Shown one piece after another: positions 21,408 through 44,512 of a stretch of 64,000 bases of DNA. The notes under the pieces are model-generated. The model worked only from the letters and a program-made list of their open reading frames with translations, did not search any database and was not told where the DNA came from. Position 1 is the first letter of the stretch, and every line of letters starts with the position of its first letter. This stretch comes from Sulfolobaceae archaeon (GTDB lineage Archaea; Thermoproteota; Thermoprotei_A; Sulfolobales; Sulfolobaceae): contig JAWARQ010000004.1 of assembly GCA_038893355.1 (NCBI GenBank), positions 64,001 to 128,000 on the forward strand, in the 5' to 3' direction. The position numbers and the translations under genes are program-made.

Positions 21408-21791
21408 ATGCCAGCAGGAAAACCGGCTTATGTAAAATTCGATGTACCGCAAGAATTAAGTGAGAAAGTTTTAGAGGCTGTAAGAAAGGCTAGAGAGACT
21501 GGTAAGATAAAGAAGGGTACAAATGAAACAACAAAAGCAGTAGAAAGAGGTCAAGCTAAGTTAGTAATTATAGCCGAAGATGTACAACCTGAAGAAATAG
21601 TTGAACATCTACCTCTTTTATGCGAAGAAAAGAAAATACCTTACGTTTATGTACCTTCAAAAAAGGCTTTAGGAGAAGCATGCGGAATTCAAGTTGCTGC
21701 TGCATCTGCAGCAATAATTGACCCTGGACAAGCTAAGGATCTAGTTGACGAAATAATTAAAAGGGTTAATGAAATAAAAAGTAAGGCATAA
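21408..21791 (+). CDS. rpl7ae: 50S ribosomal protein L7Ae
   Basis: [14 protein letters not shown] and IAEDV.PEEIV.HLP. Confidence 0.97.
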
Positions 21792-42552: not shown

Positions 42553-43047
42553 ATGAGAATTTCAGAGTATTATATTTATGTTGTACTTATTACTATGTTA
42601 CTGATAATACTATTTCTATCACTTGCACCATTTGTACCAATAAATGAACCACTATTCTTTAACGGAGTAAACTTATTCCTACCAGTAGGAGTTTCGTTTT
42701 CAGCAGCATTAGCACTCTTTAGTTTCATAATAATTTTCCTCTTGTTCAGTACTTCTAAGAATGTCTGGATTAATATTCTAATTGATAGTACTGCATTAAC
42801 ATTCTCAATCTTAAACTATATTAATATATTCTTAATTTGGAGTATTTGGCATCCTTCTTTAGTTATTATACCTTTTTTCCTCTTAATATTTTATAATGGT
42901 TCTAGTGCTTTGTGGTTAGATTTTGGGCAAATAATACTCCTGATATTCTTTTATAGGTTGTATAAAAATTATAGAAGTAGTAGAAGGCCCCGCCCCCTAT
43001 CTGGGTCTGACAGCACTGTTACTGGTGATTGGATGAAGACTCATTAG
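42553..43047 (+). CDS. Hypothetical membrane protein
   Basis: 4-5 hydrophobic segments. The C-terminal tail overlaps a structured RNA. Confidence 0.6.
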   Translation: MRISEYYIYVVLITMLLIILFLSLAPFVPINEPLFFNGVNLFLPVGVSFSAALALFSFIIIFLLFSTSKNVWINILIDSTALTFSILNYINIFLIWSIWHPSLVIIPFFLLIFYNGSSALWLDFGQIILLIFFYRLYKNYRSSRRPRPLSGSDSTVTGDWMKTH

Positions 43048-43064
43048 CCGGGCGGGGTACAAAG
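42987..43064 (+). ncRNA. H/ACA pseudouridylation guide RNA candidate
   Basis: Basal stem CCCCGCCC/GGGCGGGG, 6+6-nt pocket, upper stem TGGGTC/GACTCA, K-turn CTGA...GGATGA, and ACA at 43059-43061, 15 nt from the upper stem. Confidence 0.7.
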
Positions 43065-43114
43065 ATGATGAGGTCGACATATTCTCGAGAAATGAAGAGG
43101 GGTCGATATGCTGA
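43065..43114 (+). ncRNA. C/D-box sRNA
   Basis: C box ATGATGA, C' ATGAAGA and D box CTGA (43111-43114). The D guide GGGGTCGATATG is complementary to 23S helix-89 CAUAUCGACCCC. Confidence 0.8.
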
Positions 43115-43755
43115 TGAATGAAATTGAAGCTTTAAGGAATGAAGTAATTTCTTGTAAAAAATGTAATCTATGGAGAACTAGAAAAAATGCAGTACCAGGC
43201 TATGGTGACCCTAATGCTACGATAATGTTTATTGGAGAAGCACCAGGTGCAACAGAAGATGAAGAAGGAAAACCATTTGTTGGTAATGCTGGAAAGCTAC
43301 TTACTAAAATGATTCAAGAAGTTTTAGGTCTAACTAGAGATCAAGTATACATTACTAATTTAGTAAAATGTAGACCTCCAGGAAATAGAGATCCAACAGA
43401 TGAGGAAATAATTGCATGTAAAGATTATCTCGAAAGAGAAATTTCTTTAGTTAGGCCAAAATTAATAGTAACATTGGGAAATCATTCTACTTCTTATATT
43501 TTTAAGAAGGCTAATTTACCATATAGCAGTATTACGAGAGTTAGGGGAAAGAGTTATAGTGTCGAAATTTTGGGGATTAAGATAACAGTTTTTCCTACTT
43601 ATCATCCTGCAGCTGCACTGTATAATCCTAAATTACAATTAGAATTATATAATGATTTTAAAAGGATAAGAGAATTACTAGGCATAGAAAATAAAAGGGT
43701 AACATTAGATGTATTTTTTAAGGCGGATAAAGATGGATCTGGGGATAAAAAATAA
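43114..43755 (+). CDS. udg: Family-4 uracil-DNA glycosylase
   Basis: C..C, GEAPG..E...G.PFVG, N.VKCRPP.NR and HPAA. Confidence 0.95.
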   Translation: MNEIEALRNEVISCKKCNLWRTRKNAVPGYGDPNATIMFIGEAPGATEDEEGKPFVGNAGKLLTKMIQEVLGLTRDQVYITNLVKCRPPGNRDPTDEEIIACKDYLEREISLVRPKLIVTLGNHSTSYIFKKANLPYSSITRVRGKSYSVEILGIKITVFPTYHPAAALYNPKLQLELYNDFKRIRELLGIENKRVTLDVFFKADKDGSGDKK

Positions 43756-44512
43756 GAGAGTTATTGTTACTGCTTCTAGCAAAGGAATAGGATTCGCTAC
43801 GGCAAAAAGGTTTTTAGAAGAAGGTGCAGTAGTTGTTATTTCATCGCATGATAATGAAAATTTGAAAAAAGCTTATGAAAAGCTTCATATGATTGGTAAA
43901 GTTTATATGATTAAAGCTGATTTAACTAATCCAGAAGACGTAAAGAATTTAATAAGAGAAGGTTCACGATTACTTGGAGGATTAGATGTTTTAGTTTATA
44001 TAACTGGAAGTCCAAAACCGGGTAGTTTCTTAGAACTTTCAGAGGAAGATTGGGATTATGGTTATAGGTTGCTATTAAAGAGTGCAGTTATAGCTGTTAG
44101 AGAAGCATCAAAAATAATGGAAAAGGGTGGGAGGATAATAATTTCAACTTCATTTACCTTAAAGGAACCATTAGAAAATTTAGACCTTTCAAATGTGATA
44201 AGAGTATCTATGGCAGGTCTAATTAGATCTGCAGCTAGGGTATTAGGTAAGAAAGGTATATTAGTTAATGGGATAATGCCAGGTTGGATACTCACGGAAA
44301 GGGTCTCTCAGATTATTAGAGATAGAGCAAGAAGGGAAGGTAAAAGTGAGGATGAAATAGAGAAAGAATTAACGTCTAATATTCCATTAGGTAGGATAGG
44401 AAAACCCGAGGAAGTCGCTAACGTTATACTGTTCCTTGCTTCTGAACTTTCAACTTATGTAAATGGTGCCTTAATTCCAGTAGATGGTGGGTATTTAAGG
44501 TCAACATTTTAA
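43733..44512 (+). CDS. Short-chain dehydrogenase/reductase
   Basis: TASSKGIG, S..IR, N.I.PG and PLGR.G.PEE. Confidence 0.88.
   Translation: MDLGIKNKRVIVTASSKGIGFATAKRFLEEGAVVVISSHDNENLKKAYEKLHMIGKVYMIKADLTNPEDVKNLIREGSRLLGGLDVLVYITGSPKPGSFLELSEEDWDYGYRLLLKSAVIAVREASKIMEKGGRIIISTSFTLKEPLENLDLSNVIRVSMAGLIRSAARVLGKKGILVNGIMPGWILTERVSQIIRDRARREGKSEDEIEKELTSNIPLGRIGKPEEVANVILFLASELSTYVNGALIPVDGGYLRSTF

Follow-up and report, generated by a model that had tools for sequence, protein, structure and literature searches.

H/ACA motifs that guide pseudouridine formation at position 35 (Psi35) of the intron-containing precursor of tRNA-Tyr (pre-tRNA-Tyr) have been predicted in Sulfolobus solfataricus, S. 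tokodaii, S. acidocaldarius, and Metallosphaera sedula (PMC2651775). In three of these species the motifs, named Sso1, Sto1, and Sac1, are directly flanked by the C/D motifs Sso-159, Sto-sR4, and Sac-sR39; the published account lists no flanking C/D motif for M. sedula. The same work reconstituted Psi35 formation in vitro, placed the modified U 14 nucleotides (nt) from the ACA box, and detected both a long H/ACA plus C/D form and a short form on a northern blot of S. solfataricus RNA. Deletion of sR115 in S. islandicus abolished Psi35 of tRNA-Tyr and slowed growth (PMC11077068). Here, we describe a gene of this type in a 64,000-nt stretch of DNA (the window) from a Sulfolobaceae archaeon (assembly GCA_038893355.1, contig JAWARQ010000004.1, positions 64,001 to 128,000). 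With a probability of roughly 90%, positions 42987-43114 of the window hold the ortholog, from this uncultured archaeon, of the published composite small RNA (sRNA) gene, that is, Sso1/sR115 joined to Sso-159/Sto-sR4/Sac-sR39. An earlier note, made from the letters of the window alone, had stressed how few H/ACA RNAs are known in Sulfolobales; the element is not new, its ortholog having been published in 2009 (PMC2651775).

Sso1, Sto1, Sac1, and sR115 share with the present element a single hairpin with a 9-bp lower stem, a kink-turn (K-turn) 6 bp above the pocket, and an ACA box, as well as U35 of pre-tRNA-Tyr(GUA) as target, pairing with the intron, and a 14-nt distance to ACA. In each case a C/D motif follows directly on the 3' side, and an aPus7 with a substituted motif II is encoded in the same genome. 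The present copy differs in that it belongs to another genus and carries its own guide/intron variant (CCUAUC/GAUAGG). Its lower stem of about 9 bp stands directly before the ACA, and its bipartite pocket flanks an unpaired U-N of a stable RNA, pre-tRNA-Tyr, with the U 14 nt from ACA, as in archaeal H/ACA guides. The K-turn is predicted to bind L7Ae. For the 80-nt hairpin the computed folding energy is -35.8 kcal/mol (z = -3.7), a value that none of 200 shuffled sequences equaled, and GC content rises from about 0.25 outside to about 0.5 across the H/ACA and C/D element (Table 1). A 3-nt spacer (AAG) separates the ACA from the C box of the second half, which has the C, D, and C' boxes and the two 12-nt guides of an archaeal C/D sRNA, together with a degenerate D' box (CUCG). 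The anatomy of both halves and their direct joining, as drawn in the earlier note, thus agree with the letters of the window. H/ACA guides of ribosomal RNA (rRNA) sites belong to the same type of ribonucleoprotein (RNP) and share the K-turn and pocket design; the target here is instead a pre-tRNA. Atypical guides of the Pyrobaculum type possess no lower stem and no ACA, both of which are present in this hairpin.

The source genome is 84% complete and incompletely assembled. Of 24 family genomes searched at the DNA level, 14 yielded the region, and so did none of 16 genomes from other families of the order. A covariance model, R1, was then built from 15 sequences; it gave full-length matches of 89-133 bits in all 13 sampled family genomes, and also in three others (G005, G016, and G020; such numbers are our handles for genomes, G000 being the source genome). 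In total, the full-length composite was present in 25 of 26 family genomes, as a single copy in the source genome, and all 25 loci were matched again when re-searched with the model. Spacing between ACA and C box was 0-6 nt in each of the 15 aligned sequences. The composite of G020 has 17 nt between a GCA and the C box, with an unrelated D' guide and a retained D guide. G008 is the only family genome with the C/D sRNA alone at the locus, where an AT-rich, TATA-like stretch precedes it; the hairpin was not found elsewhere in that genome with R1, a model of the full composite rather than of the hairpin only.

Comparison of these loci also bears out the structure of the hairpin, for which the earlier note had proposed covariation as a check. 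Stems were counted both by motif anchoring and on a model-fitted alignment, as MAFFT had misplaced one gap in the 3' strand of the upper stem (P2). When the 25 composites are aligned to the model, paired cells make up 94.4% of the total, and both partners vary in 11 of 15 stem pairs; such an alignment leans towards the structure, and the motif-anchored count gave the same picture. None of 500 shuffles reached this level of covariation, and slid registers came nowhere near it. RNAalifold, applied to the alignment of relatives, recovered both stems unaided, with 10 of its 19 predicted pairs changing on both sides. Among the 15 aligned sequences, the GA and UGA of the K-turn are invariant, the apical part varies in sequence and length, and the terminal box is ACA in 14 and GCA in 1. 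In the 3' strand of the pocket, AGC is invariant in the relatives.

The tRNA-Tyr(GUA) gene of the source genome carries a 17-nt intron after position 37, and its sequence across the anticodon reads CCCGGCUG-U-A-GAUAGGGGGCG, with the core GGCUG, U35 A36, GAUAGG. Four Watson-Crick pairs and one G-U pair join the 3' guide UAGCC to GGCUG (positions 30-34), while the 5' guide CCUAUC pairs perfectly with GAUAGG, which comprises G37 and the first five intron bases, so that U35 and A36 are left free. The distance from target position to ACA is 5 + 9 = 14 nt. A target pattern that tolerates G-U pairs matched the 1.4-Mb genome twice on both strands combined, against 0.76 matches expected, and the only stable RNA that it matched in the correct register was pre-tRNA-Tyr. 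The second match, GGUUAUUGAUGGG, lies on the minus strand near 125827 of G000:C3 and is presumably due to chance, as 0.76 matches are expected. The earlier note had derived the target GGCUAA-U-N-GAUAGG, which occurs nowhere in the genome, and could not place it; moved over by one register (GGCUG-U-A-GAUAGG), the target falls on U35 of pre-tRNA-Tyr, so the failure stems from a pocket register that was one base off.

The same complementarity was assessed in the relatives by setting the tRNA-Tyr gene of each against the hairpin of that very genome. In fixed register, the 5' guide forms at least 5 bp with the intron region of its own tRNA-Tyr in 11 of 13 genomes, or in 12 of 14 when G005 (UUCGCC/GGCGAA) is included. 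Matched guide/intron variants comprise CCUAUC/GAUAGG, CCUAUU/GAUAGG, CCCAUC/GAUGGG, UUUAUC/GAUAAG, CCUACC/GGUAGG, UCCAUC/GAUGGA, and UCACC/GGUGA. Of 142 non-cognate combinations of guide and intron, 25% reach 5 bp. Most archaeal H/ACA guides target rRNA. That the hairpin guides an rRNA pseudouridine rather than one in tRNA-Tyr is nevertheless almost certainly wrong: the pattern derived in the earlier note has no match in the genome, the stable RNA matched in correct register is pre-tRNA-Tyr only, and the 5' guide varies in step with the tRNA-Tyr intron. In addition, Muller et al. identified no rRNA target of the orthologs (PMC2651775).

In the proposed mechanism, the H/ACA half, together with Cbf5, Nop10, Gar1, and L7Ae, would convert U35 of intron-containing pre-tRNA-Tyr(GUA) to pseudouridine. 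Since the 5' guide pairs with G37 and the first five intron bases, this reaction would have to precede splicing. Genes for a Cbf5-type TruB_N protein, L7Ae, fibrillarin, and Nop10 are present in the source genome. One gene of the Ribosomal_L7Ae family (121 bits) lies within the window itself, at 21465-21743, about 21 kb upstream of the sRNA gene. The aPus7 of this genome, a TruD/Pus7 homolog, has D-T-N in motif II in place of the D-K-R found in human PUS7 and Methanosarcina mazei TruD; the alignment did not extend to motif IIIa. This change in motif II was described for Sulfolobales by Muller et al. in 2009 (PMC2651775), and the hairpin would stand in for an aPus7 that carries active-site substitutions in this lineage.

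The C/D half would act as a double guide which, with L7Ae, Nop5, and fibrillarin, directs 2'-O-methylation of U2618 and U2643 of the 23S rRNA of this organism. The D guide core GGGGUCGAU forms nine Watson-Crick pairs with 23S positions 2617-2625, the only such site in 16S and 23S rRNA; counted back from the D box, the fifth base faces U2618. The D' guide core GGUCGACAU forms seven Watson-Crick and two G-U pairs with positions 2642-2650 (AUGUCGGCU), with the fifth base before the D' box opposite U2643; the core of the relatives, GCCGACAU, forms eight Watson-Crick pairs with 23S rRNA. These two sites are 25 nt apart, and in 52 of 5000 trials shuffled guides gave two sites no more than 60 nt apart. 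An alternative D' target at position 1096 of the large-subunit rRNA (eight Watson-Crick and three G-U pairs) was rejected, as its one mismatch coincides with the fifth base ahead of the box and it does not suit the guides of the relatives.

Alignment to an annotated E. coli 23S gene put U2618 and U2643 at annotated positions 2478 and 2503. The annotated copy, at 2903 nt, was judged to run one position behind the standard numbering, on the basis of the E. coli landmarks A2503-U2504-G2505-U2506. The sites are therefore E. coli U2479, in helix 89, and U2504, and the helix 89 target that the earlier note had assigned to the D guide (about U2479) is retained. Both predicted methylations would adjoin the peptidyl-transferase center, and domain V around this center is known to be rich in targets of archaeal guides (PMC7994747).

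Conservation of the cores GYCGACAU and GGGUCGAU holds throughout the family and extends, in stand-alone copies, across the order. With Sso-159, Sto-sR4, and Sac-sR39, the C/D half shares its position directly 3' of an H/ACA motif; it differs in the degenerate D' box of this copy and in that the targets U2479 and U2504 are predicted here. Our literature search returned the name Sso-159 from PMC2651775 only and found no published target for Sso-159 or Sac-sR39, supplementary tables lying outside its scope. The sR39 of PMC4644070 is a Methanopyrus sRNA and was set aside as distinct from Sac-sR39. The two guides also hold invariant, mutually complementary CGAC (43075-43078) and GUCG (43103-43106) segments, which RNAalifold draws as a 4-bp helix that lacks covariation. 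This complementarity probably reflects only the 23S rRNA targets of the guides.

Several observations weigh against the assignment of the locus to this composite, or against parts of it. At the gathering score, Rfam returned no match in the window, and at E <= 10 it returned none to the hairpin within 42800-43300, there being no Rfam family for this hairpin. Weak C/D matches span 43061-43117, all below gathering score, and the best of them, snoPyro_CD, reached 21.5 bits against a cut-off of 45. Those C/D models are specific to other sRNAs, so that a sub-threshold score is no argument against the C/D class. In the predicted 23S rRNA duplexes, three mismatches adjoin the box on the D' side and two on the D side, and the D' box is degenerate, which makes the efficiency of the predicted methylations uncertain; methylation of U2479 and U2504 is, moreover, a prediction of the present analysis. 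Finally, in two genera (G006 and G009) the 5' guide, UCCUCC, forms only 2-3 bp with the intron in fixed register. Its pairing partner there, GGAGGG, lies 5 nt deeper within the intron, an offset that would leave about seven target bases unpaired at the pocket, and the guide-target geometry is therefore not uniform.

Beyond the two guide functions, the persistent junction raises the question of whether the joined arrangement has a role of its own. Outside the family, many genomes in other families of the order (L063-L078) carry the same C/D sRNA on its own, as a gene of about 60 nt that no hairpin precedes, and these copies keep the guide cores GCCGACAU/GUCGACGU and GGGUCGAU. Hence, the C/D gene is most likely the older part, to which the hairpin was attached in the ancestor of the family. 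The long form of about 130 nt could act as a single bifunctional RNP, or the C/D RNP could define and protect the 3' end of the H/ACA part. Such a role would fit a junction that arose once and persisted, with 0-6 nt of spacing in the 15 aligned sequences, and it would fit the long form seen on the S. solfataricus northern blot (PMC2651775). The same blot also shows a short form, likely the H/ACA part alone, and an H/ACA motif transcript works in vitro (PMC2651775). The C/D gene of G008 stands without a hairpin, the M. sedula motif has no listed C/D neighbor, and persistence can be simple inheritance. On balance, we regard a functional junction as unlikely. On the question of one RNA or two, raised by the earlier note, the S. 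solfataricus ortholog shows both forms (PMC2651775). The present copy is presumably expressed as well, and its halves may likewise become separated.

Eukaryotic composite C/D-H/ACA small Cajal body-specific RNAs (scaRNAs), such as U85, combine methylation and pseudouridylation guide domains in one transcript. In contrast to these, the domains of the archaeal gene stand in tandem and have different targets (pre-tRNA and 23S rRNA), the H/ACA part also occurs as a short form of its own, and no Cajal-body signals apply. In other families of the order, R1 also matched hairpins only (model positions 13-82/85) in G085, G119, G047, G088, G079, and G105, which may represent stand-alone H/ACA guides like the published Ape7 of Aeropyrum pernix.

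Table 1. Coordinates of the composite sRNA gene and adjacent features, in positions of the window
Feature	Position	Strand	Remarks
Upstream ORF (open reading frame), 164 aa	42553-43047	+	Hydrophobic, no Pfam family; last 20 codons form the 5' two thirds of the hairpin
TATA-like box TTTTATAG	42949-42956	+	About 31-38 nt 5' of the hairpin, within the upstream ORF
H/ACA lower stem, 5' strand, GCCCCGCCC	42987-42995	+	Pairs with 43050-43058; 6 of 9 lower-stem pairs change on both sides across relatives
Pocket, 5' strand, CCUAUCU	42996-43002	+	CCUAUC is the 5' guide
Upper stem P2, 5' strand, GGGUCU	43003-43008	+	Pairs with 43037-43042; 5 of 6 P2 pairs change on both sides
K-turn and apical stem-loop	43009-43036	+	GA (43009-43010) opposite GAUGA (43032-43036)
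Upper stem P2, 3' strand, AGACUC	43037-43042	+	6-bp P2 with 43003-43008
Pocket, 3' strand, AUUAGCC	43043-43049	+	UAGCC (43045-43049) is the 3' guide
H/ACA lower stem, 3' strand, GGGCGGGGU	43050-43058	+	9-bp stem with 42987-42995
ACA box	43059-43061	+	Directly 3' of the lower stem; 14 nt from the position opposite U35
C box AUGAUGA	43065-43071	+	UGAUGA invariant in 15 of 15 aligned sequences
D' guide, 12 nt, GGUCGACAUAUU	43072-43083	+	Core GGUCGACAU
D' box CUCG	43084-43087	+	Degenerate; CUGA, CGGA, or CAGA in relatives
C' box AUGAAGA	43092-43098	+	From alignment of relatives
D guide, 12 nt, GGGGUCGAUAUG	43099-43110	+	Core GGGGUCGAU; GGUCGAU invariant in 15 of 15
D box CUGA	43111-43114	+	Invariant in 15 of 15 aligned sequences
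udg, uracil-DNA glycosylase superfamily	43108-43755	+	PF03167, E = 1.2e-40; start at ATG 43108 or ATG 43114

The hairpin overlaps the end of the upstream ORF by 61 nt, about 20 codons, as the earlier note had reported, and the ORF ends inside the 3' strand of the pocket. The frame of this ORF enters the hairpin, by 31-73 nt, in 12 of 14 genomes, ending in a tail of the RPRPLSG type; in G003 and G015 it stops 21-29 nt before the hairpin. Conservation of this tail is explained by the RNA, as the changes in the RNA are compensatory. A homolog of the membrane ORF was found upstream in 13 of 21 loci of the relatives. Within the ORF, the TATA-like box may serve as a promoter of the sRNA gene. A box of the TTTATA type stands about 30-38 nt before the hairpin in most relatives, and the same bases encode a conserved FYRLY-like peptide. 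A scan for promoters and terminators relied on bacterial consensus sequences and is uninformative for an archaeon.

On the other side, the final A of the D box is shared with the in-frame ATG 43114 of udg, as previously noted; the ORF listing starts two codons earlier, at 43108. A CUGAUG overlap occurs in 7 of the 25 composites and coincides with the udg start in 6 of them (G000, G001, G006, G017, G013, and G023). This arrangement invites the explanation that L7Ae binding or assembly of the C/D RNP on the D box controls udg translation, with the sRNAs cut from the leader of the udg mRNA. Since L7Ae of S. acidocaldarius acts as a repressor of its own mRNA by way of a K-turn in the 5' untranslated region (PMC5539422), gating is conceivable in the lineages in which D box and start overlap. 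Elsewhere, however, udg begins 17 to about 190 nt downstream. Across 21 loci of the relatives, udg is downstream on the same strand in 13, and upstream and divergent in 2 (G011 and G021); at the other 6 it was not found within about 1.5 kb. Conservation speaks against a general link to udg, the overlap with its start being confined to 6 of 25 composites. Furthermore, the passages of PMC5539422 covered by the search mention no glycosylase, the supplementary table of bound mRNAs lying outside the scope of this comparison. Control of udg in this manner is thus very improbable. A combined proposal, in which the junction is selected because the long transcript works as a unit (as a bifunctional RNP, or with the C/D RNP determining the 3' end and stability of the tRNA-Tyr guide) and in which, in overlap lineages, this assembly would further determine where the udg mRNA begins or how it is translated, is speculative and clearly on the unlikely side.

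The gene order of membrane ORF, sRNA, udg, and short-chain dehydrogenase is common but not universal in the family. In the window, the short-chain dehydrogenase ORF, if taken from its first ATG (43709-44512), shares 47 nt with the end of udg (43709-43755). Its start may lie further downstream, as its relatives align from residue 7-9.

As a discovery the locus adds little, given that the composite, its tRNA-Tyr target, and the rationale of an impaired aPus7 have been in print since 2009, with genetic confirmation following in 2024. It is useful for annotating this genome, and it points up the absence of an Rfam model for this RNA. What the comparison adds includes two genera with pairing offset by 5 nt and a hairpin that doubles as the end of a membrane-protein ORF in 12 of 14 genomes. 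It also provides at least seven matched guide/intron variants, a clean natural covariation series for the pairing of an H/ACA guide with its target. Overall, 25 of 26 sampled family genomes retain the junction of the two guides, while in other families of the order the C/D half occurs on its own.

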